This document shows positions 13,304 to 64,000 of a stretch of 64,000 bases of DNA, piece after piece. This DNA is from Dehalococcoidia bacterium. GTDB taxonomy: Bacteria > Chloroflexota > Dehalococcoidia > GIF9 > UBA5629. Under the pieces are notes generated by a model. That model did not search any database. It was not told the origin of the DNA and was given only the letters and a program-made list of their open reading frames with translations. Position 1 is the stretch's first letter. Every line of letters starts with the position of its first letter. A program made the position numbers and the translations under genes. The stretch spans positions 15,725 to 79,724 of the forward strand of contig DAOTWF010000027.1 in the NCBI GenBank assembly GCA_034435835.1, given 5' to 3'.

Positions 13304-13442
13304 ATTCACCTCCTAGATATAGAGAATTTGTGGCGAACTAGAATAAAGCTCCAGGGTAACTTTAGAGACTTGTGAGCGGCATGATTCGCTGGATGAAGAT
13401 TGCCTTGCATCTCATTACTCTGACCAGTTAAATTAGCGGCAT

Positions 13443-43680: not shown

Positions 43681-44114
43681 TTAGGGTTGTGTGGGGGTTG
43701 ACGGCGGTCTACGTCGTCTTTTTTCCGCAACTTTTAGTCGAATCAATGAGCGTCGCAGGGCAGCTTCTACTTGTGAAATATCGGTCCCGGGTGGATGTGT
43801 TTTCAGTAGCTGTTCAGCCCTCTCCTTGGCTGTTTGAGCCCGTTCAATGTTGATCTCCTCAGCCCGTTCGCAGGCGTCTGCTAGAATTATGACCTTGTCC
43901 GGCCGCACTTCGAGGAAGCCACCAGAGATAGCCATGTATATTTCCTCGTTATCTTTCCTGATGAGCAATTCTCCGGGCTTGAGGATGGTCATCAATGGTG
44001 CATGATGGGGCAGTATGCCAAGCTCGCCCTCGATCCCTGGTGCGACAACCAGACTGACTTCGTCTGCGAATACCTGGCGCTCAGCGGTTATGATTTCCAA
44101 ACGCATAGTCGGCA

Positions 44115-44115
<1 letters not shown>
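43681..44115 (-). CDS. atpC: ATP synthase epsilon
   Basis: [35 protein letters not shown] pattern. Confidence 0.96.
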
Positions 44116-45521
<1,406 letters not shown>

Positions 45522-46382
45522 TTAAGAGTGCAAGGCTTCAGCACCTCCGGTGAGGTCAAGAAGCTCCTTGGTGATCATTTCCTGTCTTGCTTTATTCAGG
45601 ATCAGAGTTAGTTCTTGGATAACTTGGTTGGCATTGTCAGTAGCATTGCGCATAGCCACCATACGTGCCGACTGTTCGCTCGCGATTGCTTCAAGTATGG
45701 CATGGTATACAGACATTTCCACAAACCGGGGTAGAAGTTCGTTCAGTACAAAGCTGGGATCAGGCTCATATATGTATTCCGCAGTCTGTGTTTTGGGCAG
45801 AATTGCTGGCTCGACAGGAAGTAAAGGTTCTATTCTTGGTTGTTGTGCCATTGTGGTGATGAAACGGGAGTAGGCTATATAAACTTGGTCAATATAACCG
45901 CTAGTATAGTCATCGATTATGATGTGTGATATCGGGAGTGTGTCCAGCAATGAGGGGCGATCGCCGATGTTGGTAAACTCAGCCCTGATATCGAGATGGT
46001 GGCGGTGCATGAAGTCCCGCCCTTTGCGCCCCACGGTGATGAGCGTTACCGGCACTTTTTGTTCCAGAATGAAGTTGGTCGTCAGACGGTTCATGTTTGT
46101 GTTCAACCCACCACAAAGGCCCCGGTCGGTGGTGATATGCACTATGGCAACTCTTTTGACTGGCCTTTTTTCGAGCAGGGGGTGGAAAGCCCCGTCTTTT
46201 GAGGCAGTAGCCGCCAGGTCAGCGATTACTTGGATTATCTTTTCGCTGTATGGGCGTCCTGCCAGTGCCTGTTCCTGAGCGCGCCGCATTCGTGCAGTAG
46301 CGATCATTTCCATAGCCTTGGTGATTTTGGCTACATTCTGCACGCTGCGAATGCGACGGCGCAAAAGTCGTGGGCTGATCAT
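45522..46382 (-). CDS. atpG: ATP synthase gamma
   Basis: KITKAMEMIA, TDRGLCG, SEQSARMVAM.NA.DNA, ARQ..IT.EL. Confidence 0.98.
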   Translation of the reverse strand: MISPRLLRRRIRSVQNVAKITKAMEMIATARMRRAQEQALAGRPYSEKIIQVIADLAATASKDGAFHPLLEKRPVKRVAIVHITTDRGLCGGLNTNMNRLTTNFILEQKVPVTLITVGRKGRDFMHRHHLDIRAEFTNIGDRPSLLDTLPISHIIIDDYTSGYIDQVYIAYSRFITTMAQQPRIEPLLPVEPAILPKTQTAEYIYEPDPSFVLNELLPRFVEMSVYHAILEAIASEQSARMVAMRNATDNANQVIQELTLILNKARQEMITKELLDLTGGAEALHS

Positions 46383-46384
46383 GT

Positions 46385-47896
46385 CTATAAGCTCATAGTC
46401 TTTTTGAATTCCTGGATCGCTTTCTTCAAGACTTCTTCGGTCTCAGGCTTTATCTCCTTGTCTGTAGCTATGCGTTTGCCAATTTCGGGATGATTGGTCT
46501 CTATGAACTGGTGAAAGTTCTGCTCAAAAGCAGCTACTTTGTCGACAGGTACGTCGTCAAGGTAACCATTGACAACAGCGTAAAGTATGGTCACCTCTTT
46601 CTCCAAAGGCATTGGTGCATATTGTGGCTGTTTTAGTACCTCAGTGATGCGCTGTCCACGTTCCAGTTGAGCCCTAGTAGCCTTATCCAGATCGGCGGTA
46701 CCGAATTGAGCGAAGGTGGCAAGTTCCCTGTATTGAGCCATTTCCAGTCTGAGTCTGCCAGCCACCTGTCTCATAGCTCTTGTCTGGGCGTTGCCGCCCA
46801 CCCTGGATACTGAGAGGCCTGCGTTTAGTGCTGGACGGATACCAGCGTTGAAAAGGTCCGTCTCAAGATATATTTGTCCATCGGTGATGGAGATAACATT
46901 GGTTGGGATGTATGCAGCGAGGTCACCTGCCTGGATTTCGATTATGGGGAGGGCAGTAAGCGACCCTCCACCGTATTCCGGTGCCAGTTTTGCAGCCCGT
47001 TCCAACAGGCGGCTGTGGAGGTAGAAGACGTCGCCAGGGTAAGCCTCTCTACCAGGTGGGCGCCTCAGTATTAGAGAAATCTGGCGGTAAGCCCAAGCAT
47101 GTCTGGTCAGGTCATCGTAGACAATGAGCGCATCTCTACCCTGCTCCATGAATTCTTCGCCTATGGCGCAGCCAGAGTATGGTGCCAAGTATTGCAGTGG
47201 TGCTGGGTCAGAAGCAGTGGCTACCACGACCACCGTATGTTCCATGGCACCGTAGCGTTTCAAAATGTCTATCACCTGGGCTACCTTGGAGGTCTTTTGC
47301 CCGATTGCCACATAGATACAGATGAGGTCACCGCCTTTCTGTGCGATGATGGTGTCTATAGCTATGGCTGACTTGCCAACGGAGCGATCGCCTATAATCA
47401 GTTCGCGTTGTCCCCTGCCGATGGGTATGAGGGCATCGACTATCTTTATACCGGTGTGGACAGGTGTATTAACCGGCTGTCGCATGACCACATTTGGCGC
47501 CACTCTCTCTACAGGGCGAGTTTTTGTGGCTTTTATGGGACCAAGGTCATCCAAAGGATTGCCCAAGGGGTCTATGACTCTCCCTATCAACTCATTGCCC
47601 ACTGGCACCTCTACTACTCTGCCAGTGCTCCTCACCTCATCACCCTCTTTAATCTGGCTGTGGTCGCCAAGGACCACGGCGGCAACACAGTCTTCTTCGA
47701 GGTTGAGTGCTAGCCCCATGATGCCGTTCGGAAATTCGACAAGCTCATTGTACTTGGCACCTTGCAACCCCTGTATACGTGCCACCCCGTCGCCGACTTC
47801 GATAACGGTGCCCACATCCACCATGCTCACTGTGGCACCGAACTGTCTGATCTGCTCCTTAATTATGGATACTATGTCTCGTTCTCTAGTTGTCAT
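46385..47896 (-). CDS. atpA: ATP synthase alpha
   Basis: [51 protein letters not shown]. Confidence 0.99.
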
Positions 47897-47915
47897 ATTG
47901 TCCTCCTGAATGGCA

Positions 47916-48455
47916 TCATCTTCTAACCCCGGATAGAGTCTTCTTGAGAGCCTGCAACCTACTTCGGATGCTGCCGTCGATTAAGCTGCTGTCGATCCGG
48001 GCAATGAAGCCACCTATGATGTCAGGGTCTACTTCCAGATTCAATACGACTTTTCCGCCGGTGGCTGATTCCAGATATTTTTTGATGTTCTCTCTTTCTG
48101 CATCGCTCAGCGGGATAGCTGTGATGACGTCAGCGTGTTTTATGCCACGTTGCTCGTCGAGTAGGCGTCCGTAGGATTGAACCACCTGTTCAAGCTCTCT
48201 GAATTTCCCTTTTGCGATGAGGAAGCAAGCGAGGTTTAAAGGTAGCTGGCTTATTCCTGTCAGTCTTTCCCGCAGTAGCTTCAGCTTGAAGTCCAGAGGT
48301 ATTTTTGTGTTCTCAGCAAATTTGGTTATCTCTGGTTCTGCAGCCAGTTTTGCCATTTCTGTTAACTCGGAATGCCATTCTTCAAGCTTACCGTTTTCCT
48401 TGGCAAGCTCGAACATGGCTTCGGCGCAGCGTCTGGCAAAAGTTGTTGCTGGCAT
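47916..48455 (-). CDS. atpH: ATP synthase delta
   Basis: [30 protein letters not shown]. Confidence 0.93.
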
Positions 48456-48469
48456 AAACTAGTCCTGTA

Positions 48470-48967
48470 TTACTCTTTAAGCAAAGGGCTTTCTTTTAGT
48501 GTTTCTTCGATAAGTCTGCGGTGCTTCTCCTTGTCGAGAGTCTCCCTGATCACCTTTTCTGCAGCCATCACGGCGATGTCGGCGAATTCGTGGCGTAGCT
48601 CCTCGATTACTTTATCACGCTCCTGCTGTATTTCCGCGCGCGCTTTGGCGATGATGGCTTCGGATTCTCTGCGAGCACTCTCTTTGGCCTCCTCTCTAAG
48701 TCTTTCTCCCATCTGGGCTGCCTGAGCTATGATTGCCTGCCCTTCTTGGCGGGCCCTTTCTATCTGTGCCTTTATTTCCTCTTCACTGCGTGCTGCTTGC
48801 TGCTTGATCTGTTCTGCCTGTTCCATGGCTTCTCTGATCCGCGCTTGTCTCTCGTCAAGCATCCTGAGCACCGGTTTGTACAGGACGATGCTAAGGAGCA
48901 AGAAGAGGATAATAAAGTTGACCAGAAAAGCCAGCAGGAGCGGTAGATTTATCCCAATACCTTCCAT
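48470..48967 (-). CDS. atpF: ATP synthase subunit b
   Basis: N-terminal TM ending YKPV...LDERQ, then an Ala/Glu-rich coiled coil. Confidence 0.96.
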   Translation of the reverse strand: MEGIGINLPLLLAFLVNFIILFLLLSIVLYKPVLRMLDERQARIREAMEQAEQIKQQAARSEEEIKAQIERARQEGQAIIAQAAQMGERLREEAKESARRESEAIIAKARAEIQQERDKVIEELRHEFADIAVMAAEKVIRETLDKEKHRRLIEETLKESPLLKE

Positions 48968-48998
48968 ATCACTCCATTTACTATCTCAACTTCGGTTC

Positions 48999-49124
48999 TC
49001 AGTCTGCCGGAATGAACGAACCAATGATAAAAGCGGTGATAAGAAGCCCGGCGAAGACTATGGCGCCTACTATTATGGCTCCAACTATGACACTCAAGGA
49101 AGTCGGCAGATTCCCATTTTCCAT
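48999..49124 (-). CDS. Unannotated 41-aa single-TM protein inside the atp operon
   Basis: SD AGGAGG 6 nt before the ATG; MENGNLPTSLSVIVGAIIVGAIVFAGLLITAFIIGSFIPAD*. Confidence 0.7.
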   Translation of the reverse strand: MENGNLPTSLSVIVGAIIVGAIVFAGLLITAFIIGSFIPAD

Positions 49125-49154
49125 ATTTTTCCTCCTGACTGCCTTAGCGCTTGG

Positions 49155-49385
<231 letters not shown>

Positions 49386-49399
49386 CTACGAACCTCCTT

Positions 49400-50359
49400 C
49401 TAAGAATGTTCCCCTTCGGTGTGGGGTGTTAAAGCTATAATACCAAATACCAGAGTTAGCCCGGCAAAGATCAGCGCCTGAATAAAACCGATAAGTAGTT
49501 CCAGCCCATAGAATGGTATGGTGGCGATGAATGGGACGAGGAAGCAGACGACGAGCAGCAGTATCTCACCTGCTGTCATGTTACCAAAGAGACGGAAGGT
49601 AAAGCTGATGATGCGGATAAAGTGACTGAAGACTTCAAGGAAACCGACGAACAGGTTTATGAAACCGAAGGCGATGCCAGTGATAGCTGGCCTTATTTTT
49701 CCTCTGAAAAGATTGGCAATGCCTTCGCGGAGTTGACCCAGGTTAAAGAAACTGTTCAAGTAACGCAAGGCTCCCAATGATCTCAATCCCCAGTACTCCA
49801 CGAAGATGAACGACATGATAGCGATGGACAAAGGCACGTTTATGTCAGTATTAGCCGAGCGGAAGAGCGGCACGAAGGTGTCGGCGGCTTCTTTGATGCC
49901 GATGGCGCCGAAGAATGGTAGCAGAGCCATATAGGCGTTGGTGATGACATAGAGAAAGATGGTGGCGACAATCGGGAAAAGGGTGCGGGCGTTCTTCTCA
50001 CCGGCTGCGCCCTGGATAAAATTAAGCAGACTTTCCACAATCAGCTCAGCAAAGTTCTGGAGCCTGTCTGGAACGAGTTTCATCTTGCGGGTACAGAAGG
50101 CAAAGAGCACGACTAGCACTATTATAGTAAGCCATGATGCCAGCAGAGTATTGGTGATGACGAATATGTGGTTTATATGGATGACACCTTCTGCCCGAAG
50201 TTCCACGTGGGGCTTAGGGACGCTAATAAAGCTAGGTACTTGGATGCCCAGCAGTTTAGAGCCTATGGGACCGACAACGAATCCTACAACCAATAAAGCT
50301 AGCAGGACGATGGCTATCCAAGCCAGTATCCTGACTGAGCATCCCGGTCCCATGTTCAT
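49400..50359 (-). CDS. atpB: ATP synthase subunit a
   Basis: TFRLFGNMTAGE, FIQALIFAGL. Confidence 0.96.
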   Translation of the reverse strand: MNMGPGCSVRILAWIAIVLLALLVVGFVVGPIGSKLLGIQVPSFISVPKPHVELRAEGVIHINHIFVITNTLLASWLTIIVLVVLFAFCTRKMKLVPDRLQNFAELIVESLLNFIQGAAGEKNARTLFPIVATIFLYVITNAYMALLPFFGAIGIKEAADTFVPLFRSANTDINVPLSIAIMSFIFVEYWGLRSLGALRYLNSFFNLGQLREGIANLFRGKIRPAITGIAFGFINLFVGFLEVFSHFIRIISFTFRLFGNMTAGEILLLVVCFLVPFIATIPFYGLELLIGFIQALIFAGLTLVFGIIALTPHTEGEHS

Positions 50360-52345: not shown

Positions 52346-52361
52346 TAGCAAATAGTTGCAA
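52346..52361. promoter_or_regulatory. Putative Fur-family operator 1, overlapping the -35 of fur
   Basis: TAGCAA-ATAG-TTGCAA; the TTGCAA also serves as -35 of TTGCAA-N18-TACAAT. Confidence 0.5.
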
Positions 52362-52394
52362 AAAGTTCGGCATAACTGCTACAATTTTCTTGGT

Positions 52395-52823
52395 ATGAGC
52401 TGTGGTCAAATACTGAGGGGGATGGGATACCGCCTGACACCGCAGCGGATGATGGTGGTTGAGGTACTGCACGGCACCGATAAGCATATCAGTGCTGAGG
52501 AAATATTTGCTCAGGTACAAGCCAGATATCCGTATGCCAATATCTCTACGGTATACCGTACGCTTGATCTCTTGAAGGAACTGGGGCTGGTCGCCGAGAT
52601 ATCTCTGGGCGATGGGTGTGTCCGTTTTCACCCAGTGGACAAGGGTCACCACCACCATCTGGTATGCCAGAGTTGCCGCAAAGTGGTCGACATACCAGAG
52701 ACTGCGCTAACACCTCTTGCCGAAGGCCTGAGTAAAGAATACGGCTTTAAGGTGGAGCTGCGGCATATGGCTATCTCTGGTTTGTGTGCTGAGTGCCAGA
52801 AACAGACAGCACAGCAAGCCTGA
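52395..52823 (+). CDS. Fur-family metalloregulator
   Basis: RLTPQR, HISAEEI, STVYRTL, HHHHLVCQSC, GLCAEC. Confidence 0.95.
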   Translation: MSCGQILRGMGYRLTPQRMMVVEVLHGTDKHISAEEIFAQVQARYPYANISTVYRTLDLLKELGLVAEISLGDGCVRFHPVDKGHHHHLVCQSCRKVVDIPETALTPLAEGLSKEYGFKVELRHMAISGLCAECQKQTAQQA

Positions 52824-52851
52824 GACTGAGCAATTATATTTTTGCGTTCTG

Positions 52852-52867
52852 GCGCAATAGTTTGCAA
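52852..52867. promoter_or_regulatory. Putative Fur-family operator 2, upstream of nikM/cbiM
   Basis: GCGCAA-TAGT-TTGCAA, the same GCAA-N4-TTGCAA core as operator 1. Confidence 0.5.
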
Positions 52868-52900
52868 TTGCGCTTAATGCAGAAAAGTAAGGAGGCAGAT

Positions 52901-53542
52901 GTGCATATCCCGGATGGTTTTATAAGTACACCTGTGGCTGTGGGAGGGATAGCTATAGCTGCTGGTACGGTAGCCTATGCTGTCAAGGCGACGAACAGGA
53001 GGCTGGGAGAAAAACAGGTGCCGTTGATGGGTGTACTGGCGGCATTTATCTTTGCTGCCCAGATGCTCAATTTTCCTGTGGCTGGGGGCACTTCGGGGCA
53101 CTTTATGGGGGCAGCGTTGGCGGCGATACTATTGGGACCATGGGCTGGACTTCTGATAATGACGTGTGTCCTCTTGGTGCAGTGTCTGGTGTTCCAGGAT
53201 GGCGGGCTTCTAGCTCTGGGTGCCAATATTATCAATATGGGAATTGTCGGTTGCTTTCTAGGGTATTATATTTACCGCGGTTTTACTGCGCTGGTGCGTG
53301 GTAAAAAAACGGCTTTGATTGGTGGAGGTATAGCTGGCTGGGCATCGATTGTGGTGGCTGCTATTTTCTGTGCAATGGAGCTAGGTATTTCCAGTACTGT
53401 GCCCCTGTATGTAGCGCTTCCGGCGATGGGTGGCATTCATGCGCTCATTGGAATCGGTGAGGGACTGATAACAGCGGCGGTGCTGGCGCTGGTGATGGCT
53501 ACCAGACCCGACCTGATGAAGCTGGAGCCACAAAAAACTTAG
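52901..53542 (+). CDS. ECF transporter S component NikM/CbiM
   Basis: GTG start after AAGGAGG gives N-terminal MHIPDGF; FAAQMLNFP, GTSGH, LGANIINMG. Confidence 0.93.
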   Translation: MHIPDGFISTPVAVGGIAIAAGTVAYAVKATNRRLGEKQVPLMGVLAAFIFAAQMLNFPVAGGTSGHFMGAALAAILLGPWAGLLIMTCVLLVQCLVFQDGGLLALGANIINMGIVGCFLGYYIYRGFTALVRGKKTALIGGGIAGWASIVVAAIFCAMELGISSTVPLYVALPAMGGIHALIGIGEGLITAAVLALVMATRPDLMKLEPQKT

Positions 53543-53561
53543 AAAGGGGGTCTCAAAGGCT

Positions 53562-53846
53562 ATGAAATTCCAGTGGTGGCATGGCGCTTTAATAGCCAGT
53601 TTTATCTTGGCATTGCTGTCGCCAGTAGCATCATCGTCCCCCGATGGACTGGAGCGAGTGGCTGAAGATAAGGGGTTCATAGAGGCAGCCAGAGAATCAT
53701 GGTATGAGCTTATCCCCGACTACACAATGCCTGGCATTGGCAGTGAGGTGCTGGCTACTGTAATTTCCGGCGTGCTCGGCACGGCGCTATTGTTCGGCAT
53801 AGGTTACGGGATTGCCAGAGCGTTGAAGGCGAGAGATGAAACATAG
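53562..53846 (+). CDS. PDGLE-domain protein (NikN-like)
   Basis: SSSPDGLERVAE...PDY, two TMs. Confidence 0.9.
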   Translation: MKFQWWHGALIASFILALLSPVASSSPDGLERVAEDKGFIEAARESWYELIPDYTMPGIGSEVLATVISGVLGTALLFGIGYGIARALKARDET

Positions 53847-54615
53847 CTTTGTAGACCAGTACTGTGATTTAAACAGCTTTATCCACAGGCTTGATCCTAG
53901 GACAAAGTTTGTTGTCAGCCTTGCTTTTATTCTGGCAGTGTTGCTGACTCCGGCTGGCGAGTGGTTGATGTTTGCTTTTTATTTTCTGGTTGTTTTGGGG
54001 TTACTGGCTCTCTCCAAGTTGCCGCCTTTTTATGTCGTGAAACGGTCGCTGGTTGTTATCCCCTTTGTCCTGCTGGTGGCTGTTTTCATTCCGTTCTTTA
54101 AGGAGGGCGAGGTGGCTGGCAGCTATAATATCTGGCTGTGGGAGATATCGGTCACCTACAGCGGGCTTTTTGTGCTGGCGAATGTTGTGGCAAAGGCTTG
54201 GCTGTGTATCCTCTGTCTAATCTTGCTATCTTCGACCACTAGACTGGCTGAGTTACTGAAGGGGCTATGCCAGCTTGGCGTTCCTCAGGTCGTAGTATTG
54301 ATACTTTCCTTCATGTACCGCTATGTTTTCGTTCTGGTGGACGAGGCGATGAGAATGCATCAGGCATATCAGAGCCGGGATATTGGTGGAAGCCTGCTGC
54401 GCCGGTTGAAGGCGTTCGGCAATATGATCGGCGTCCTTTTCATCAGAAGTTATGAGCGTGGGGAGAGGATTTACGCGGCAATGGTATCTAGGGGTTTTGA
54501 TGGGCAGGTGCGCACATTGCGCCCTTTGGAATTGAAGGGCGCTGATATCTCTTTCAGTGTAGTTTTGGGAATTTTGTTGGCGTCACCTTACATCATCTGG
54601 TGGGTTCGATGGTAG
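53836..54615 (+). CDS. ECF transporter T component NikQ/CbiQ
   Basis: HRLDPRTK, MYRY..VL.DEA.RM..A..SR, RSYERGERIY.AM.SRGF. Confidence 0.93.
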   Translation: MKHSFVDQYCDLNSFIHRLDPRTKFVVSLAFILAVLLTPAGEWLMFAFYFLVVLGLLALSKLPPFYVVKRSLVVIPFVLLVAVFIPFFKEGEVAGSYNIWLWEISVTYSGLFVLANVVAKAWLCILCLILLSSTTRLAELLKGLCQLGVPQVVVLILSFMYRYVFVLVDEAMRMHQAYQSRDIGGSLLRRLKAFGNMIGVLFIRSYERGERIYAAMVSRGFDGQVRTLRPLELKGADISFSVVLGILLASPYIIWWVRW

Positions 54616-55325
54616 ACAGAGTCATCTATATCAAAGACCTCTCTTTCGTTTACCCAGATGGGACTCATGCTTTAAAAAAGATAAGTCTTTCTGTTTATGC
54701 TGGCGAGAGTGTGGCAATAGTCGGTCCAAACGGTGCCGGGAAATCTACATTACTCCTCCATCTCAATGGGGTGTTACGCGGAAATAGCACGGTGGAGATA
54801 TGTGGCATCCCTGTCAGGGATGGAAATTTGAAGGAGATAAGGAAAAAAGTGGGGCTGGTGTTCCAGGACCCAGATGACCAGCTCTTTTCTCTGACTGTTT
54901 TCGAGGATGTGGGTTTTGGACCGTTGAATATGGGTTGTTCTGAGGCCGAGGTAAATGAACTGGTTTCTCGAGTGCTGGGATGGGTGGGGATGAAGGGGTA
55001 CGAGAAGCGTTCCCCGCACCATCTGAGCATCGGCGAAAAGAAGCGGATCGCCATCGCTACCGTGCTGGCGCTTGATCCGGAGGTCTTGGTGCTTGACGAG
55101 CCTACAAGCAACCTCGACCCCAGAAGCAAATGGTCCCTGGTGACGCTGTTAAGGCACCTCCTAGTGACCAAAGTAATAGCCACTCACGACCTCGAATTGG
55201 TGCGCGTTTTATGTCAGCGTGTAGTTGTGCTGGATAAAGGTGAGGTGGTAGCTGACGGCACTACTGAGACTATTCTCAATGATCTGTCACTCTTGCGGGC
55301 ACACGGACTAGCACCTGAGGACTAG
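54609..55325 (+). CDS. ECF transporter ATPase NikO/CbiO
   Basis: GPNGAGKSTL, VFQDPDDQ, LSIGEKKR, LDEP. Confidence 0.94.
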   Translation: MVDRVIYIKDLSFVYPDGTHALKKISLSVYAGESVAIVGPNGAGKSTLLLHLNGVLRGNSTVEICGIPVRDGNLKEIRKKVGLVFQDPDDQLFSLTVFEDVGFGPLNMGCSEAEVNELVSRVLGWVGMKGYEKRSPHHLSIGEKKRIAIATVLALDPEVLVLDEPTSNLDPRSKWSLVTLLRHLLVTKVIATHDLELVRVLCQRVVVLDKGEVVADGTTETILNDLSLLRAHGLAPED

Positions 55326-56185
55326 TCCAGTTCTAGGCTGATATCCAGCGCTCTGGCTGAGTGGGTGAGCGCGCCTACCGATATCATGTCCACACCGGTT
55401 TCTGCTATTGCCCGAATCCTCTCAAGAGTGACCCCGCCTGAGGCTTCAACAAGGGCACGCCCTTTTATCAGTTGCACGCTGTGGCGCATGTCTCCCAGGC
55501 TCATATTGTCCAGCATGATGATGTCGGCACCAGCTTCAGCGGCTTCACGTGCCTCTTCGGGTGTTTTTACCTCTATCTCGACCTTTGTTCCCGGTGGCAC
55601 CTTGTGGCGGGTCTGAGCAATTATTTCCTTTATGTTTTTACCGCTGCGGCGCAGTACTGTCAGGTGGTTGTCCTTTATAAGGATGCCATCGCCGAGATGC
55701 ATACGGTGGTTCCTACCGCCGCCGAGCCTAACGGCGTATTTTTCCAGTAGCCGCAAGCCCGGTGTGGTCTTTCTGGTGTCGGTTATGCTGACAGGGAGCC
55801 CACTGACTGCCTGAATGTAGCGTGCTGTCTCTGTGGCGATGCCGCTCAGATGTTGCAGGAAGTTCAAAGCCAGGCGTTCGGCTTTCAACATGCTGGAGAC
55901 TCTTCCTTGCAGTCTGGCTACGACGTCTCCGGGCTTGACCTTGCCGCCGTCTTTGATGAGTAGTTCGATATGAAGTTCGGGGTCGACCCTGAGAAAGACC
56001 TCCCTTGCTATTTCGATCCCGGCGATGATGCCCTCAGCCTTGGCTAGGATGTAGGCAGTCCCACGTTCGGAATCTGGTATCAGTGAGTCAGTGGTTATGT
56101 CCCCGTGACTGAGATCCTCTTGCAAGGCTAGCTCAATAAGCTGCCCTATTTGATGGACGTCCAGACCGCCTTCCAGACTATTCAC
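55322..56185 (-). CDS. nadC: Nicotinate-nucleotide pyrophosphorylase (quinolinate phosphoribosyltransferase)
   Basis: DTRKTTPG.R..EKYAV..GGG.NHR, LIKDNH, IMLDNM, ASGG, SVGALTHS. Confidence 0.96.
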   Translation of the reverse strand: MNSLEGGLDVHQIGQLIELALQEDLSHGDITTDSLIPDSERGTAYILAKAEGIIAGIEIAREVFLRVDPELHIELLIKDGGKVKPGDVVARLQGRVSSMLKAERLALNFLQHLSGIATETARYIQAVSGLPVSITDTRKTTPGLRLLEKYAVRLGGGRNHRMHLGDGILIKDNHLTVLRRSGKNIKEIIAQTRHKVPPGTKVEIEVKTPEEAREAAEAGADIIMLDNMSLGDMRHSVQLIKGRALVEASGGVTLERIRAIAETGVDMISVGALTHSARALDISLELD

Positions 56186-56657
56186 TGCTGTCTTCTTGCA
56201 GTTCCTGCAAAATCATGTTAACACATGCGGATACTGCTTTTCTAACCGGGGCAGTGAATTCCTCACCGAAGGTGCTGACATCTGCTGCTTCGATAGCGTA
56301 GATGGTTATCTTTTGAGGCAGACGTAAGCCAAGCCTGCTGCCAAGTTCGAGGGCTGTCCTGAAGTCGATGCCGTGTGGAGAGGTAATGTGATCGGCAGTG
56401 TCGAATGCCTCGGGTGTGAGTCTGTAGATCTGCCCCGGTGTACCCCCGACTGTCTGGATGGCATCTATTATGATTGCTTGGTCATAGCCGGTGAGCAAAT
56501 CGAGCAGGACAAGCCCTGTTGTTGCCGTCTCCGCAACTGTGACATCAGGACGGCTGATTTTCTCTCTCAGCGCCGCGGCAACATAAAGCCCCGCACCGTC
56601 ATCGGTGAGCAGGGAATTGCCTATCCCCAGTATCAGTATCTTCCCTCTATCAGGCAC
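56178..56657 (-). CDS. Hydrogenase maturation endopeptidase (HyaD/HycI-like)
   Basis: ILGIGN.LLTDDGAG, IIIDA, SPHG. Confidence 0.93.
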   Translation of the reverse strand: MPDRGKILILGIGNSLLTDDGAGLYVAAALREKISRPDVTVAETATTGLVLLDLLTGYDQAIIIDAIQTVGGTPGQIYRLTPEAFDTADHITSPHGIDFRTALELGSRLGLRLPQKITIYAIEAADVSTFGEEFTAPVRKAVSACVNMILQELQEDSSE

Positions 56658-56693: not shown

Positions 56694-58154
56694 TTATCTT
56701 TTTAGCCTCTCCACTACTTCGCCCTTGCTGTTATAGATAATAATCTCCATCGGTGCTTGTCCCGGTAGGGAATGAGTGGCGCAAGCAAAGCAAGGGTCAT
56801 AGGGGCGCCATGCCATCTCTATGCGGTTGAGCAACCCCTCGGTTATTTTCTTGCCCGGCTGGATAAGTGCCATGGCTGCTTTTTTGATTGACATGTTAAA
56901 TGCTGCGGAGTTGCCCACAGTGGCTACAATCAGGTTTGCCTTTTTGATCACGCCTTTCTCGTCTGTAACATAATGATGGATCAAGGTACCGCGTGGGGCT
57001 TCGACGATGCCGAAGCCCTCGTCCGGTTTAGCTGTAGGGATGGTTCGGATGTTGGGGCTGGTGATCTCAGGGTCACGGCTCAATTCCAAAAGCCTTTCGG
57101 CAGCGTAGAGGAGCTCAACAAGCCTGGCCCAATGCATAGCTAAAGTATGGTGCACCGGCTTGCTCCCAAGTGTGGAGTACATCTTCTCGTAAGCCTCCTG
57201 AGCCAGTGGTGTCGCCATGCCATCAGCAGTGTTGAGGCGGGCAAGCGGTGCCACACGGTAGACACCGCTGTCCTTACCGTCTACAAAGCCTTTCCAGCCA
57301 ATCTTCTTCAGGAAGGGGAACTTGATGTAGCTCCAGGGCTCGACGTGCTCGGCGATGTGGTCCAAGTACTCTCGTGGTGAGAACTTGGCAAACTCCTTAC
57401 CATCAGGATCCACCACCCTGACTTTGCCATCGTAGAAATTCACCTTGTTCTTGTCATCTACCAAGCCCATGTAGTAGGTGCGGTGGGTATAGGCTTCGCT
57501 CAGGATCATATCGACATATTCTTTATTCTTCAGTACGATATCGTCGAAGACTTTAAGGGAAAGCTTCGCGAATTCTACAGAATCTTTGGCAATTTGCTCT
57601 ACCTCTTTTCGTTCCTCTTCGGTGAGACCTTTGCTGATGCCCCCCGGAAGCCCGAAGACAGGATGCACAGCCCTACCGCCGAGCATGTGGATGATACGGT
57701 GGTTCTGCATTCGCGTCTTTATCACGGCTCCGCCAAGTTCCAGTCCGACCTTGGCGATGACGCCGAGGATATTGCGCTCTGCTACCGGGGCCTCGGGGCC
57801 CATGATAAAGTCTGGACCGGCGAGGATATAGAAGTGGGTGGTATGGTCGGTGACATAGAATGCACTGTAGAAAAGCTCGCGTAGCTTTTTGGCAGGACTC
57901 GGCGGGTCGACATGGAAGAGGTCATCAAGGCATTTAGTCGCTGCAATGTGGTGCGCTTCAGGGCAGACACCGCAGATACGCTGGGTAATCTGTGGCATGT
58001 CCTCAGCTAGACGCCCTTCACAGAATTTTTCGAATCCTCTCAGCTCTGGCACTTGGAAATAGACATTTTCCACACCGCCAGCATCATTGAGGAAGATTTC
58101 GATCTTGCCGTGTCCTTCCAGACGAGTGATCGGATCAATGGTGATCTTCTTCAT
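56694..58154 (-). CDS. mvhA: [NiFe]-hydrogenase large subunit, group 3c (MvhA-like)
   Basis: ITRLEGHG, RICGVC (L1), EAPRGTLIH, YDPCFACATH (L2) plus a cleavable tail. Confidence 0.95.
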   Translation of the reverse strand: MKKITIDPITRLEGHGKIEIFLNDAGGVENVYFQVPELRGFEKFCEGRLAEDMPQITQRICGVCPEAHHIAATKCLDDLFHVDPPSPAKKLRELFYSAFYVTDHTTHFYILAGPDFIMGPEAPVAERNILGVIAKVGLELGGAVIKTRMQNHRIIHMLGGRAVHPVFGLPGGISKGLTEEERKEVEQIAKDSVEFAKLSLKVFDDIVLKNKEYVDMILSEAYTHRTYYMGLVDDKNKVNFYDGKVRVVDPDGKEFAKFSPREYLDHIAEHVEPWSYIKFPFLKKIGWKGFVDGKDSGVYRVAPLARLNTADGMATPLAQEAYEKMYSTLGSKPVHHTLAMHWARLVELLYAAERLLELSRDPEITSPNIRTIPTAKPDEGFGIVEAPRGTLIHHYVTDEKGVIKKANLIVATVGNSAAFNMSIKKAAMALIQPGKKITEGLLNRIEMAWRPYDPCFACATHSLPGQAPMEIIIYNSKGEVVERLKR

Positions 58155-59110
58155 TTTATCCTAGCCCTCCTTAACAGAGAATCAGGCAGACTATATCGGT
58201 AGAAAGTGCCCACAGGGTCACAGATATCGTCGATAATTTTCTGTATCTCTTCAGGGTTGTTGGCATCGATCACCGAGGCAACTGCGCTGAGGAAGTGTGC
58301 TCCCTGGTCAATTACCCCCTCTACGGGACCGTAGCAGCCAGTGCAGGGCATGTTAGCCTGCGGACAGGGCGCGCCACAACCACCCCTGGTGGCGATGCCG
58401 GCACAGAGCAGCCCCTGCTCCAGAAGGCACACCTCGGCGTCGGGTATAATTTCGAAGGTGCGGTAGAATTTTTTCACCTTCTTTACGTCCCGCTTCCGCG
58501 GGCAGTCATCACAAACCGCCTTGACGCTGTGGCTGATTACCGTGCCTTTGGGCGGTAATTTCCCCTGAATTAGTGCTTCCAGAGCCAACCAGGTAGTTTT
58601 TTCCTCCGGCGGGCAGCCGGGGATGACGTAGTCTATCTCGACGGTCTGACGCAGGGATCTGACGGTATCGTAAAACTCGGGAATGGTGAGCTCACCCTCC
58701 GGTACCTTAAACTTGGTCTGGGGAAAGACTTTTTCCTTGTTGTCTGTAGACTGAGTTTCCAGGTAAACCTGTTTGAAAATCAGCTCTCTATTAAACATAT
58801 TGCCTAAGCCAGGGATACCGCCATTGTGAGCACAGGAGCCGTAGGCGATCATCACCTTGGACTTTTCTCGCAGCATCTTTGCCAGATGTTCCTGCTCTGA
58901 GTTCCTGATGGCGCCATTGAATAGGCAGACATCTATGCTCTTATCGGGCATTGCCTCCACGTCCTTATATTTGACGTCGATAGCCACAGGCCAGAAGACT
59001 ATATCTGCGGCTTCAGCCAGCTTGAGTATCTTGTCTCCGATCTGTAGCTGCGCGATTTCGCAGCCACCGCAACTGGCTGCCCAGTAGAGCGCTACTTTAA
59101 GTTTAGCCAT
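58151..59110 (-). CDS. mvhG: [NiFe]-hydrogenase small subunit (MvhG-like)
   Basis: SCGGCE, GSCA..GGIPG, PGCPP, CDDC, CLLEQG..C.G..TRGGC...C......C.GCYG. Confidence 0.94.
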
Positions 59111-59528
59111 GTTTTGCCTCCTTGGAGTTCTTCCCGAAAGGGCCTAAGGCTCTGACTTTTTCGGTCATCTCGTCAACGATGGCAACGAAGCGATCGCCTT
59201 CGGATGCTGACACCCAGTCAAGCCGCACGCGGTCCTCTTCGATTCCCATCTGGGCCAGCATCTTTTTGAGCAGTGGCATACGGCGCGCTGTTTTATAATT
59301 GCCCTCGACGTAGTGGCAGTCACCCGGGTGACAGCCTAGAACAAGCACGCCGTCAGCCCCCAGTTCGAAGGCTTTGAGGACAAAAGTCGGCTCCACACGG
59401 CCGCTGCACATAACCCTGATTATACGCACATTGGGCGAACATTTCATCCTGGCGGTGCCAGCTAGATCGGCTCCTCGATAGGAGCACCAGTTGCAACAAA
59501 AGCCGACTATTTTTGGTTCGAAGCTCAT
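59103..59528 (-). CDS. mvhD: MvhD/FlpD [2Fe-2S] adaptor, Cys form
   Basis: [24 protein letters not shown]; ATG overlaps the hdrA stop (ATGA). Confidence 0.95.
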
Positions 59529-61486
59529 ACTAATACCCCCTCGATTTCTGCCATTATTTCTTCGGTGGTGAAATGCTTCTGTGTGATCGCTGCGCTGGGG
59601 CAGGCGGCAACACAGGTGCCACAGCCCTTGCACAGCGCTTCGTTTATTCTCGAGACCTCTTTGTCTTCGATGAAGGTTATGGCGTTGTACGGGCAGAGGA
59701 TGTTACAGACCCTGCAGCCAGAACACTTCTCCTCATCGATTACAGCCACGGTGGCTTCAAGCTCGACCTTGCCCTTGCTGATTAGACTTAGCACTCTGGT
59801 GGCGGCGGCGGAAGCCTGCGCTACTGTATCGGGGATGTCCTTGGGACCCTGGCAGCAGCCGGCGATGAATATGCCGTCTGTCATAGTAGCTACCGGGTCA
59901 AGCTTGGGATGTCTCTCGATGAAGAAGCCGTCTGCCCCCTGGCTGATGCGGAATAACTGGGCTACCTGCTTGGCATCAGAGCGTGGCTCAAGCGCTATGC
60001 ACAGTATCACCATATCCACCGGGACGCGGATCACCTGACCGAGCAGGGTATCCTCGCCGCAGACGATGAGTTTTCCCTTCTCTTCATTGGTCAATGCCCT
60101 GTCGGTGACCTCAGCCGCCTTGCCGCGGATGAACTTAACACCCTCTTTGGACAGTCTCTCGTAGAACTCCTCGTAGCCTTTGCCGAAGCAGCGCATGTCG
60201 ATATACATCTGGTAGACATCAGCTTCGGTCTTTTCTTTAATAAGATGGGAGTACTTGAGGGCGTACATGCAGCATACTCTGGAGCAATAGCGGTGGTAGT
60301 TTTCATCTCGGCTGCCCACGCAATGGATGATGGCGACGCTCTTTGGCTCCGAGCCGTCTCTGAGAACTATCCTGCCGCCCGTAGGACCGGCAGCGTTGCA
60401 CAGCCTTTCAAACTCCAGGGCGGTGTAAACGTTGGGGTAGCGCCCGTAGCCGTATTTGACGATGGGCGTGGGGTCGAAGGGGTCATAACCGGTGGCGATT
60501 AGGATGTTGCCGACCTCAAGTTCCACAATCTTGTCCTGCTGTTCGAAGTCTATGGCGCCGGGCTCGCAGAACTTCTCACAGGCACGGCACCTACCTTTGA
60601 GGAAGTAGACGCAGTGCTCTTTATCTATCACAGGTATGTTGGGAACTGCCTGCGGGAAGGGTGTGTAGATGGCTTTCCGTTCGCCAAGCCCCAGGTCGAA
60701 TTCGCTGGGCGCCTTCCACGGGCATTTCTCCATGCAGACACCGCAGCCGTTGCACTTTTCCTCATCGACAAAGCGGGCCTTCTTGCGGACTTTGACCTTG
60801 AAGTTCCCAATGAACCCCGAGACCTCCTCAACCTCGCTGTAGGTCATCAGTGCGATATTGGGATGAGAACCGGCTGCGGTCATTTTGGGCGTCAGGATGC
60901 AGGCGGAACAGTCCAAGGTGGGGAAGGTCTTATCGAACTGGATCATGTGTCCGCCGATGCTCGGGTCCTTTTCCACCAGGTATACCTTGTGTCCGGCATC
61001 GGCGATCTCCAGGGCGGCTTGGATGCCGGCAATGCCACCGCCGACTATCAGCGTTGCCGGGTTTACCGGCACCTCTTTCGTCTCCAGAGGCTGGTGGTAG
61101 CGAACGCGTTTCACCGCAGCGCTGACCAGTGCCTTTGCCTTCTCTGTGGCTTTGTCATGGTCTTCGGTTGTCCAGGAACAGTGCTCGCGGATATTTGCCA
61201 TCTCAAAGAGATAGGGGTTCAGCCCGGCTTCCTGTACGGCGTGGCGGAAGGTGGGCTCGTGGAGGAGCGGTGAGCAGGAGGCGACCACCACCCTGTTGAG
61301 CTTTAGGTTCTTGATGTCCTCTTTTATCATGTTCTGCCCCGGGTCGGAGCACATAAACTTGTATTCTCGAGCCACCACCACCGAGTCCAGCTTTTTAGCA
61401 AATTCCACCACATGCTGTACGTCAACGGTACCAGCTATATTAGAGCCACAGTGGCATACATATACTCCGATCTTCGGTTTCTCCAT
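59525..61486 (-). CDS. hdrA: Heterodisulfide reductase subunit A-like flavoprotein (copy 2)
   Basis: [52 protein letters not shown], ferredoxin inserts. Confidence 0.96.
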
Positions 61487-61518
61487 CGCGTCTCCTCCTT
61501 TAACTTGCTGCGACCTCA

Positions 61519-62673
61519 CTATAGTGCCTCCGCGACCAATTCGGAGAGATCCTTTATTTCGATTACCTCGCTCTTGTTAGTGGTGAGCACGGCGTCGTTG
61601 AAGTTTGCCATACAGTAGGGGCAGCTCACGGCGAGAATTTCAGCCCCTACCTCAGCCACCTGTTCCAGCCTCAGCTCGGAGAATCTCTCTCCTTTCTTGG
61701 TCTCCATCCATAGCCTTCCGGCGCAGCCGCCACAGCATAGAGAGTATTCCCGGTTATCCTGCATTTCCGTGTACTCGATGCCGGGAATGCTCGATAGTAC
61801 ACGTCTGGGCTCCTCGTAAATGTTTTGGTATCTGCCAAGACAGCAAGAATCGTGGTAAGTTACCTTTTTGACCAGTGGCTTGGAAAACTTCAATTTCCCC
61901 TCCTGGATCAGCTGGTCGAGGTATTGAGAGAGATGGATTACTTCGTAGTTGCCACCAAACTCTGAGTATTCGTCTTTAAAGGTATGATAACAGTGGGGTG
62001 AGGTGACGAGGATCTTTTTCACGCCCAGTTCGTTGAATATTTTGATATTACTCTCAGCGAGCTTATGGAATAAGCTCTCGGCGCCAGCCTTGCGGATGCT
62101 CTCGCCACAGCAGAGGACGCTATTGTCCGGGATACCGAAGTCCACCTTAAGCTTTTTCAGTATATTAACCGTGGCAATGGCAGTCCTCCTGGTGGGTGGA
62201 TCATAACATTGGTAGCAACAGGGGAAGTAGAGGATCTCGGTGCCCTTGGTGAAGGTCTTGACGCCGAGGTCTTTAGCCCAGTCCATGCGTTTTTCCGGTG
62301 GCTCACCCAGAGGGTTGCCGACGGCGGAGATGTTCTTCTCTGAAATGCGCAGGGAGTGGGGCACGATGCCGGCACCGATTTCCATGATGACCCGTCTGAT
62401 AGCTCGCATCAGAAGTGGCATCTGGACGTCCCGGGGGCATCTTTTTACGCAGGCGTTGCAGGCGACACATTTCCACACCTCCTCATTCTCGAAGTCCACC
62501 ACGCCTAACTGTGCTTTATGGACGAGCTTGCGGAGTGAGAATGTGGTCACCCGGTTCCACGGGCATATTCCGGTACAGAGACCGCATTGAAAACACAGCT
62601 TGAGGGCGTCACCGCCCTCTTCTAGGATAATATCAGTGGTCTCTTTGGATGGTGTGAGCAGTTCGATTTCCAT
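61519..62673 (-). CDS. Soluble HdrD/FadF-like Fe-S oxidoreductase (2x[4Fe-4S] plus two CCG domains)
   Basis: CFQCGLCTGIC, CVACNACVKRC, CCGE...SPHC, YHDSCCLGR...CCGG...SCPYC; no TM. Confidence 0.88.
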   Translation of the reverse strand: MEIELLTPSKETTDIILEEGGDALKLCFQCGLCTGICPWNRVTTFSLRKLVHKAQLGVVDFENEEVWKCVACNACVKRCPRDVQMPLLMRAIRRVIMEIGAGIVPHSLRISEKNISAVGNPLGEPPEKRMDWAKDLGVKTFTKGTEILYFPCCYQCYDPPTRRTAIATVNILKKLKVDFGIPDNSVLCCGESIRKAGAESLFHKLAESNIKIFNELGVKKILVTSPHCYHTFKDEYSEFGGNYEVIHLSQYLDQLIQEGKLKFSKPLVKKVTYHDSCCLGRYQNIYEEPRRVLSSIPGIEYTEMQDNREYSLCCGGCAGRLWMETKKGERFSELRLEQVAEVGAEILAVSCPYCMANFNDAVLTTNKSEVIEIKDLSELVAEAL

Positions 62674-62715
62674 TTTTCACCCTTCCTTTCCTTGAGTATT
62701 AAGAAAGCGGTGGAA

Positions 62716-62744
62716 ATTATATAGTATGTCTGCAGTTCTTGCAA
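62716..62744 (-). promoter_or_regulatory. Internal sigma70 promoter for the hdrD-like-hdrA2-mvhD2-mvhGA unit
   Basis: TTGCAA-N17-TATAAT on the minus strand. Confidence 0.7.
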
Positions 62745-62831
62745 GAGCCGTGCTAGAAGGGTGGCTACAATGGAATATTGAAGACAGCGTCTTTCCCAGT
62801 TAGCCAACCGCTGAGCCGTTACTCCTATGGT

Positions 62832-63248
62832 CTATTTCGCTGGCGTATGGAGATCGAGCGGACCAAGTCTTCTTATCTGTTCGGTCATCTCACTGACGAC
62901 TGCGGCAAAGCGGTCAGCCTCTGACGCTGATACCCAGTCCAGCCTCAGCCTCTCCGGTTCGATGCCAAACTGGGAAATGAGTTTCTTCAAAAGTGGGATT
63001 CTTCTAACCTCTTTTACATTACCTTCCAGGTAATGACATTCGCCGGGATGTCAGCCGCAGACCAGGACGCCGTCTGCCCCGAGCTCAAATGCTTTTAGGA
63101 TTAGGGTGGGCTCGACACGCCCGCTGCACATGACACGGACTATGCGGATGTTAGGGGGATATTTCTTTCGGGACGTGCCAGCAAGGTCAGCGGCAGCATA
63201 AGCGCACCAGTTACACATGAAGCCTACGATTCTTGGTTCGAAACTCAT
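62832..63248 (-). CDS. mvhD: MvhD/FlpD, selenocysteine form (138 aa)
   Basis: TGA at 63051-63053 lies in [17 protein letters not shown], the position of Cys in the paralogue's GCHPGDCHY. The frame stays homologous to TAG at 62832. Confidence 0.9.
63017..63053 (-). promoter_or_regulatory. Bacterial SECIS-like element
   Basis: UGA, 15 nt, then CAUUACCU-GGA-AGGUAAUG (8-bp stem, G-containing loop); absent at the same position in the Cys paralogue. Confidence 0.75.
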
Positions 63249-64000
63249 ATCAGCACTCCTTCCAGTTCTGACATGATTTGCTCTGTGGTGAAGTGTCTAG
63301 CCGTAATGGCACCGCTGGGACAGGCTGCAGCACAGGTACCACAGCCTTTACACATAGCCTCGTTAATCACTGAGACCTTCTCATCTTCGTTGAATGAGAC
63401 AGCGTTATATGAACAGAGGGAAATACAGGTCTTACATCCTGAACACAGTTGTTTGTCGACGAAGGCGGTAGTTGGTTCGGTCTCTACGCTGCCCTTGGTG
63501 ATGATAGCCATGGCTCGTGCAGCGGCTGCTGAAGCCTGAGCAACAGTGTCAGGTATATCTTTGGGCCCCTGACAACAGCCGGCGATGAGCACACCTTCGG
63601 TGGTGGTGGCTACTGGATCAAGCTTGGGGTGTTTTTCTAGGAAGAAGCCATCCCGACTACGGCTTATGGAGAATAGCTTAGCGGTTTCGCCAGTGTCTGC
63701 CCTAGGCTCAAGGGCGACGCTCAGGATGACAAGGTCTACCGGGAGACGCCGCTGCCTGGAGATGAGTGTGTCCTCACAGACAACGATAAGCTTTCCTTGC
63801 TCTTCGGGAGTCTCGGCAACATCGGTGACCTCTCCAGCACGGCCCCTGATGAAGTTTACCCCTTCTTCCTGGAGGCGGTTGTAGAATTCTTCGTAACCTT
63901 TGCCGAAGCAGCGCAGGTCAATATACAGGTCGTAGATTATGGCGTCAGGAATTTTTTCCCTGATGATGTGGGCAAATTTTAGCGAATGCATGCAGCAAAC
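63245..64000 (-). CDS. hdrA: HdrA-like flavoprotein (copy 1), C-terminal part; 5' end outside the window
   Basis: Frame is open to the window edge ([10 protein letters not shown]...[15 protein letters not shown]...[11 protein letters not shown]...[12 protein letters not shown]); ATGA overlap with mvhD(Sec). Confidence 0.95.

Follow-up and report, generated by a model that had tools for sequence, protein, structure and literature searches.

A selenocysteine-type and a cysteine-type HdrA-MvhD module in front of a single [NiFe] hydrogenase in a Dehalococcoidia bacterium

The locus described here lies at one end of a 64-kb stretch (the window; coordinates are window positions unless another contig is named) of contig DAOTWF010000027.1 from a Dehalococcoidia bacterium, a source that agrees with the placement of the host in the Chloroflexota by an initial annotation. 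It contains two hdrA-mvhD gene pairs, one with in-frame UGA codons at which selenocysteine (Sec) is predicted and one with cysteine (Cys) at the same sites, followed by the genes for one [NiFe] hydrogenase, MvhGA. In the list of open reading frames (ORFs) of the window, the whole cluster is on the minus strand, and the transcription order runs from hdrA1 to a hydrogenase maturation protease.

The window opens into the cluster within hdrA1 (63245..64000, minus strand, as are all of the features that follow), of which it holds the 3' part, comprising the last 251 codons and the stop codon of a 653-aa Sec-type HdrA. The next gene, mvhD(U) (62832..63248), has 138 codons, including a UGA for Sec66 at 63053-63051 in the motif VLVCG-U-HPGECHY; when this UGA is read through, the product is a full PF02662 domain (E 2e-55). 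A candidate selenocysteine insertion sequence (SECIS) hairpin, AUUACCU-GGA-AGGUAAU, is found at 63018..63034, which is nt 20-36 counted from the U of the UGA. A 158-nt spacer (62674..62831) separates mvhD(U) from the second set of genes, and contains a predicted internal sigma-70-type promoter (62716..62744; TTGCAA, 17 nt, TATAAT) located about 43 nt before the ATG of an hdrD-like gene.

The hdrD-like gene (61519..62673) has no in-frame UGA and encodes a 384-aa fusion of an HdrC-like 2x[4Fe-4S] (Fer4) domain with two CCG domains. In the Cys module this protein takes the part of disulfide-reductase partner; it belongs to a family that is very abundant in Dehalococcoidia. The gene is followed by the Cys-type hdrA2 (59525..61486, 653 aa from the ATG at 61486), whose open frame reaches back to a GTG at 61519 that abuts the hdrD-like stop codon. 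The ATG is the more likely start, being preceded by a GGAGGAG ribosome-binding site and giving a protein of the same length as HdrA1 and as the product of the hdrA2 gene called on contig L001. The Cys-type mvhD(C) (59103..59528, 141 aa, GCHPGDCHY) overlaps the hdrA2 stop codon by ATGA, an overlap present at both hdrA/mvhD junctions. Over the 251 codons inside the window, HdrA1 shares 66% identity with the C-terminal part of HdrA2, and MvhD(U) is 71% identical to MvhD(C), so that the two pairs are indeed paralogous and ATGA-coupled, as first annotated. The remaining genes are mvhG (58151..59110), which overlaps the end of mvhD(C) and encodes the small subunit of an F420-non-reducing [NiFe] hydrogenase; mvhA (56694..58154), encoding the large subunit, with Cys rather than Sec at the C-terminal Ni ligand (DPCFACATH); and a gene with a domain match to HycI-type hydrogenase maturation proteases (56178..56657).

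Because hdrA1 runs past the end of the window, its upstream context was read from other contigs. When 46 nt taken from the end of the window were sought as an exact DNA match in the GTDB genome collection, nothing was returned, and a protein look-up with the 384-aa protein returned only a 3.9-kb contig. A look-up with the 65-aa N-terminal fragment of MvhD(U) led to several contigs, including one (L002) that is 98-99% identical to the window over their overlap and reaches 10 kb further upstream. In L002, hdrC (190 aa) and hdrB (291 aa) lie directly 5' of hdrA1 and encode separate subunits, and hdrA1 itself has an in-frame TGA for Sec195 (DCSA-U-ILTPKM) at the position where hdrA2 has Cys. The suggestion that HdrA1 carries a Sec of its own beyond the window is thereby borne out, and this codon is present in every orthologue found. 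By gene content, the upstream module is a complete predicted hdrC-hdrB-hdrA(Sec)-mvhD(Sec) unit.

Divergent from hdrC, L002 encodes a NarL/GerE-type response regulator and a GAF-PAS HisKA_3 histidine kinase (L002 3331-5962, minus in the locus), and a conserved TATAAT with a poor -35 element is found upstream of hdrC. The two-component pair occupies the same position in loci L007-L025 and L087-L165, which is to say in nearly all HdrCB-type loci, whether their HdrA is of the Sec or the Cys type. Since it also accompanies all-Cys versions of the module, it is unlikely to be a selenium sensor.

Several lines of evidence indicate that the two UGAs are decoded rather than read as stops. Over their whole lengths, HdrA1 and MvhD(U) can be aligned with their counterparts in the MvhAGD-HdrABC complex of PDB 5ODC (E 5e-247 and 1e-49, respectively), and the Sec sites fall exactly on Cys residues of the paralogues, with G-U-HPGECHY matching G-C-HPGDCHY in MvhD and DCSA-U-I matching DCSA-C-I in HdrA. 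The UGA is kept in 46 hdrA and 34 mvhD sequences, all with frames that continue intact to full length, and the ratio of nonsynonymous to synonymous substitution rates (dN/dS) is 0.02-0.1 for the Sec-type hdrA and mvhD genes, with dS mostly above 1. Purifying selection is seen across all ten genes of the cluster (dN/dS 0.01-0.12).

A hairpin with a 7-bp stem and a GGN triloop follows both UGAs at the same distance (nt 20-36), and in hdrA it reads UGGCCUC-GGU-GAGGUCA. Pairs were counted in Python on ungapped sequences, since aligning both SECIS sets together with MAFFT opened gaps; among 29 unique hdrA and 24 unique mvhD sequences, 100% and 98.8% of stem cells are paired, a share that drops to 30-56% if the 3' partner is shifted by 1-2 nt. 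A single hdrA sequence has both a C-G to A-U double change and a U-G to C-G change in the stem. In mvhD, the codons that form the stem (CAU UAC CUG .. GGU AAU) show no synonymous change at all in the 24 unique sequences, while the adjacent codons vary freely. The same codons vary in the Cys paralogues, where there is no consensus fold (alifold -0.9 kcal/mol for hdrA(C)), and a pattern scan of the window found the mvhD(U) site to be the only UGA-plus-hairpin with open frames on both sides. An Rfam search gave no match to a SECIS family, and single-sequence folding after the UGAs is weak (z +0.2 to -2.1), so it is the comparative analysis that makes the hairpins convincing. A longer hdrA1 stem, GACCCCG/CGGUGGGGUC, appears in the minimum-free-energy fold of L002; it was rejected as a SECIS candidate because it does not persist in the second subclade, unlike the 7-bp GGU hairpin, which all sequences keep. 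A common stem length, loop type and distance from the UGA in two otherwise unrelated sequences is what a shared SelB-binding element would look like, and the comparative evidence argues that both UGAs are decoded as Sec with the help of these matching candidate SECIS hairpins.

Two further variants of the Sec genes were seen among the relatives. In L117 (10893-13252), a Sec HdrA (PTLDCSAUI) is followed by a Cys MvhD (GCHPGDCHY, 61% identical), a mixed module which implies that the two Sec sites can be converted independently. In L072 (near 7020) and L085 (near 6994), a distant HdrA-like gene on the opposite strand, with an in-frame UGA at PTLDCSLUI, lies beside its own hdrB, hdrC and mvhD-like genes, pointing to a second Sec-HdrA lineage in the Dehalococcoidales.

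The promoter in the spacer (TTGCAA-17-TATAAT, reading from 62744 to 62716) matches the consensus at 10 of 12 positions. Such a match is not by itself above chance, as 7 promoter-like sites were found in 9 kb where 5.5 were expected from shuffled sequences. Its conservation is more informative. In ten tandem loci the spacer is 148-264 nt long and otherwise unalignable, and the only conserved block is CTTGCA(A)-17/18 nt-TA(T/C)AAT/TATCAT, which stands 63-87 nt before the start codon in 11/11 tandem sequences. A similar element is found at the same position in L012, L023 and L024, where the hdrD-like operon has no Sec module upstream, which indicates that it is the native promoter of that operon, with the conserved block as its phylogenetic footprint. 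The initial annotation had placed this promoter between the two modules as a means of transcribing the Cys module and the hydrogenase independently; that role is consistent with its conservation in ten loci, but the promoter stands before the hdrD-like gene, which had gone unmentioned, and not directly before hdrA2. The coding strand of the cluster showed no terminator-like site at any point, so that read-through from upstream is also possible. The -35 hexamer is palindromic, and is embedded in a longer perfect palindrome, TCTTGCAAGA, in the window (62735-62746, minus strand), L002 and L008, with TTCTTGCAAGAA in L025; it might represent an operator overlapping the promoter.

Relatives of the locus were collected in two sets of 80 loci each, one from a scan of GTDB genomes seeded with the hdrD-like protein, which returned essentially only metagenome-assembled genomes of Dehalococcoidia and other Chloroflexota, and one from a scan of metagenomes seeded with HdrB of the Sec module. 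Four architectures can be distinguished. The first is that of the window, in which hdrCB-hdrA(U)-mvhD(U) is followed by hdrD-like-hdrA(C)-mvhD(C)-mvhGA-protease; 8 Dehalococcoidia genomes at species level and about 9 contigs from metagenomes have the full ten-gene form. The second consists of hdrCB-hdrA(U)-mvhD(U)-mvhGA-protease, the third (L137, L144 and L150) is identical to the second except for Cys at both sites, and the fourth, which is very common, is hdrD-like-hdrA(C)-mvhD(C), with or without mvhGA. The survey of paired copies proposed in the initial annotation gave a uniform picture, with U at both upstream sites and C at both downstream sites in every tandem locus.

In a tree of HdrA sequences, the Sec-HdrAs form one clade (100/100 bootstraps), as do the HdrB-linked HdrAs (92/100), and the Cys HdrAs of window-type loci form another (98/100), nested among HdrAs encoded behind hdrD-like genes. 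The same two subclades of window-type loci recur in the Sec and Cys HdrA trees, which indicates that the two modules have co-diverged. The MvhA tree groups the window type with the hydrogenases of the fourth architecture (82% identity to L017, 167/200 bootstraps), whereas the MvhAs of basal operons of the second and third architectures are 66-71% identical to the window type and form a separate clade (199/200). Four contigs with the second architecture (L109, L111, L121 and L126) are nested within the window-type clade whether the tree is that of HdrA or that of MvhA; in these contigs, the Cys cassette is gone and mvhD(U) lies directly before the same hydrogenase lineage. The C-terminal Ni ligand is encoded by a Cys codon in every MvhA sequence, and a hidden Sec in those orthologues that read DLCLACATH was ruled out, as the codon is always TGC or TGT.

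During this comparison, the HdrA match was seen to be split into residues ~1-300 and ~311-664, about 1.4 kb apart, in L023, L024, L046, L049, L081 and L112, and likewise in L116, L144, L150, L161, L163, L165 and L166. This recalls the 'hdrA_N-unknown-hdrA_C' arrangement described in Deltaproteobacteria (PMC1794560).

The simplest account of these distributions would have three steps. A Sec-type hdrCBA-mvhD unit, its own hydrogenase genes already lost, would have come to lie in front of a five-gene operon of the fourth architecture; the unit and the operon would then have been maintained together; and in some descendants the Cys cassette would have been deleted, leaving MvhD(Sec) directly on the hydrogenase of that operon. 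This last loss suggests, indirectly, that MvhD(Sec) is able to function with the MvhGA of the window.

Taken together, the locus is probably, if not securely, two transcription units encoding two different Hdr-type flavin-based electron-bifurcating modules that both draw on a single MvhGA. The first unit, hdrC-hdrB-hdrA(Sec)-mvhD(Sec), would be a canonical HdrABC-MvhD module with its own promoter and its divergent two-component regulator. The second, from the hdrD-like gene through hdrA(Cys), mvhD(Cys), mvhG and mvhA to the protease, would be an all-Cys unit that still has its native promoter, a near-consensus one, in the spacer. As alternative adaptors, MvhD(Sec) and MvhD(Cys) would each dock their own HdrA onto MvhAG, and H2-derived electrons would thus be delivered either to the HdrBC site or to the HdrD-like site, with ferredoxin presumably the second acceptor. 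Owing to the internal promoter, expression of the Cys module and the hydrogenase would not depend on what happens in the upstream unit. The two disulfide-reductase parts differ considerably: HdrB has no meaningful similarity to the CCG half of the hdrD-like protein (best local match E 0.002 over 47 aa), and HdrC matches the N-terminal half of that protein at 31% identity over 87 aa, against 66-71% within the HdrA and MvhD pairs. Both modules most likely take their electrons from the one [NiFe] MvhGA at the 3' end, and it is this sharing, together with the structure of the transcripts and the substrates of the two modules, that we infer.

A number of points weigh against this reading. HdrD and HdrBC catalyse the same reaction in methanogens (in HdrDE and HdrABC) despite their low identity, and different partner subunits are therefore no proof of different substrates. 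Elsewhere the genome may encode a further hydrogenase or a different partner of the Sec module. A tRNA scan of the window detected no tRNA at all, hence no tRNA-Sec, and no sel genes were found among its scanned ORFs. Finally, the HdrA and MvhA trees are neighbour-joining trees with limited sampling, and the node that joins the window hydrogenase to those of the hdrD-like operons has only 69-84% support.

The interpretation put forward at first was a selenium-responsive back-up modelled on Vhu and Vhc. On such a reading, the Sec-type HdrA-MvhD core, as the more efficient one, would be used when selenium is available; when selenium is scarce, translation would stop at the UGAs and the Cys core, expressed from the internal promoter, would take over the same physiological job. 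We consider this rather unlikely, although it accounts well for some of the data. The strict division into U,U and C,C pairs in every tandem locus is what it would predict, the conserved internal promoter frees the Cys module and the hydrogenase from upstream translation and transcription, both modules are under purifying selection, and the chemistry common to HdrD and HdrBC in methanogens would allow one to stand in for the other. There are also precedents, in the switch from Vhu to Vhc in Methanococcus (PMC13518236) and the Sec/Cys HdrA/MvhD paralogues of Desulfobacterium autotrophicum (PMC2702500). However, the two modules do not use isoforms of the same disulfide-reductase subunits, and the Cys HdrA-MvhD pair is not derived from the Sec pair but belongs to a separate clade that is widely found alone. 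Lineages without Sec (L137, L144 and L150) instead carry U-to-C orthologues of the HdrCB-linked module itself, in some relatives the Sec module directly adjoins the hydrogenase genes and no Cys cassette lies next to it, and the dedicated two-component regulator is found with all-Cys versions as well. Partner-linked clades, independent occurrence of the modules and this in-place U-to-C conversion favour two complexes over an isoenzyme back-up, as do the single Cys-type hydrogenase and a regulator that is not specific to Sec. As a main reading, the back-up was accordingly set aside. The alternative raised alongside it, of two adaptors serving different partners, fits better, with HdrCB on one side, an HdrD-like protein on the other, and HdrA clades tied to these partners; ancient separate origins and fixed separate partners, named at the outset as what would count against a back-up, describe the data more closely than does a back-up.

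Selenium might also matter without any dedicated regulator, a possibility that we regard as less probable again. Because both core subunits of the upstream module require UGA read-through, selenium supply would set the amount of HdrA(Sec)-MvhD(Sec), while constitutive expression from the internal promoter would provide the Cys core and the hydrogenase. With the two MvhDs competing for one MvhAG, selenium supply would shift H2-derived electrons between the HdrBC and HdrD-like sites. If this were so, the locus would be a metabolic switch and not a like-for-like back-up.

A third alternative, which appears improbable, is a single heteromeric super-complex, in which HdrA(Sec) and HdrA(Cys) would form a heterodimer with HdrBC on one arm, the HdrD-like protein on the other, and one or two MvhAGD units. 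HdrA is dimeric in the solved Mvh-Hdr complexes (PDB 5ODC), and both HdrAs here are full-length homologues of that dimeric protein; moreover, the tandem loci keep the ten genes co-linear and closely packed, the genes have diverged together, and no terminator-like site lies between the units. An assembly of this kind is difficult to reconcile with the conservation of each module without the other in many relatives, or with the secondary loss of the Cys cassette from loci that retained the Sec module and the hydrogenase, and the conserved internal promoter and separate upstream regulator suggest that the two units can be expressed separately. The last alternative, that the upstream module is a decaying pseudogene in which the TGAs are true stops and the Cys module is the sole working copy, would explain why gene callers split hdrA1 and mvhD(U) at the TGAs and why a collection of 5.8 billion proteins holds no full-length record more than 73% identical to HdrA1, but it is effectively refuted by TGAs that lie exactly at known Sec/Cys positions in 46 HdrA and 34 MvhD loci, by intact full-length frames with low dN/dS, and by conserved hairpins after both TGAs that are absent from the Cys copies.

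The genomic neighborhood of the cluster contains additional genes of interest. Downstream, the hydrogenase genes are adjoined by nadC (55322-56185, minus strand), just past which a plus-strand region (52356-55325) encodes a Fur-family regulator followed by cbiM, cbiQ and cbiO-type ECF transporter genes; these could provide nickel or cobalt uptake serving the [NiFe] hydrogenase. Elsewhere in the window are a membrane-bound pyrophosphatase, with a best match to the sodium-translocating type (11093-13309, minus strand), and an F-type ATP synthase operon (43681-50359, minus strand), both of which are relevant to the energy metabolism of the host.

That HdrA and FrhD/MvhD include bacterial selenoproteins has been known for a long time (PMC1794560), and both are established selenoprotein families of methanogens, Deltaproteobacteria and Clostridia (PMC1794560, PMC2702500). 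The closest match to the downstream unit in gene order is the glpC-hdrA-frhD-frhG-frhA operon of Syntrophobacter fumaroxidans and Desulfotalea psychrophila (PMC1794560), which has the same order. In that operon GlpC, HdrA, FrhD and FrhA are selenoproteins, whereas all are Cys forms here, and the present locus has in addition a Sec-type hdrCBA-mvhD unit directly upstream.

With the methanogen MvhAGD-HdrABC and VhuAGDU-HdrABC complexes (5ODC; PMC13518236), the locus shares full-length HdrA and MvhD homology and separate HdrB and HdrC subunits. HdrA1 has the DC-x-x-U motif of Methanococcus maripaludis HdrA, in which the Sec (Sec197) forms part of a Cys-Sec pair between FAD and a [4Fe-4S] cluster (PMC13518236). 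The locus differs from these complexes in its bacterial host, in the lack of a methanogenesis context, in the position of the candidate SECIS elements inside the coding sequence, in the bacterial style, and in that no hydrogenase genes lie directly behind the Sec module.

Methanococcus also provides the comparison on which the back-up idea was built, as Vhc replaces Vhu there under selenium limitation (PMC13518236). As at the locus described here, Sec and Cys paralogues of HdrA and MvhD/VhuD coexist and have separate promoters. In Methanococcus, whole isoenzyme sets are duplicated, including the hydrogenase, and a selenium-responsive regulator is known. Here, in contrast, there is one Cys-type hydrogenase at the locus, and the disulfide-reductase subunits are not paralogous isoforms; set against Vhu/Vhc, the locus thus has the Sec/Cys paralogues but not the matching partner isoforms. 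In Desulfobacterium autotrophicum HRM2, each hdrA is followed by mvhD, Sec and Cys paralogues are present, and one pair is clustered with mvhAG; its authors raised the same back-up idea (PMC2702500). The HdrA/HdrL-MvhD loci of that species are dispersed, however, and a fixed tandem before a shared hydrogenase, with an internal promoter, is not described there (PMC2702500).

A 2026 review of these selenoprotein families does not mention the Chloroflexota (PMC13188914), and papers on marine Chloroflexi report Sec formate dehydrogenases and Hdr-MvhD clusters, but no Sec-HdrA or Sec-MvhD (PMC5736913, PMC4959059). The best full-length match to HdrA1 among the 5.8 billion proteins is 73% identical, while orthologous DNA encodes proteins at 81-94%, a discrepancy which indicates that the Sec forms are split or unannotated. 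With Sec proteins split or missing in public sets, reconstructions will undercount both the Hdr complexes and the selenium dependence of these abundant subsurface bacteria. Compared with the systems above, what is new here is the conserved occurrence, in an uncultured Dehalococcoidia clade, of a predicted Sec HdrCBA-MvhD unit before an all-Cys hdrD-hdrA-mvhD-mvhGA operon, along with a footprinted internal promoter and two candidate SECIS hairpins of one geometry. Its main value is for annotation and metabolic reconstruction. It may also be a natural case of two bifurcating cores on one hydrogenase, and offers a natural system in which to ask whether two HdrA-MvhD cores can share one.

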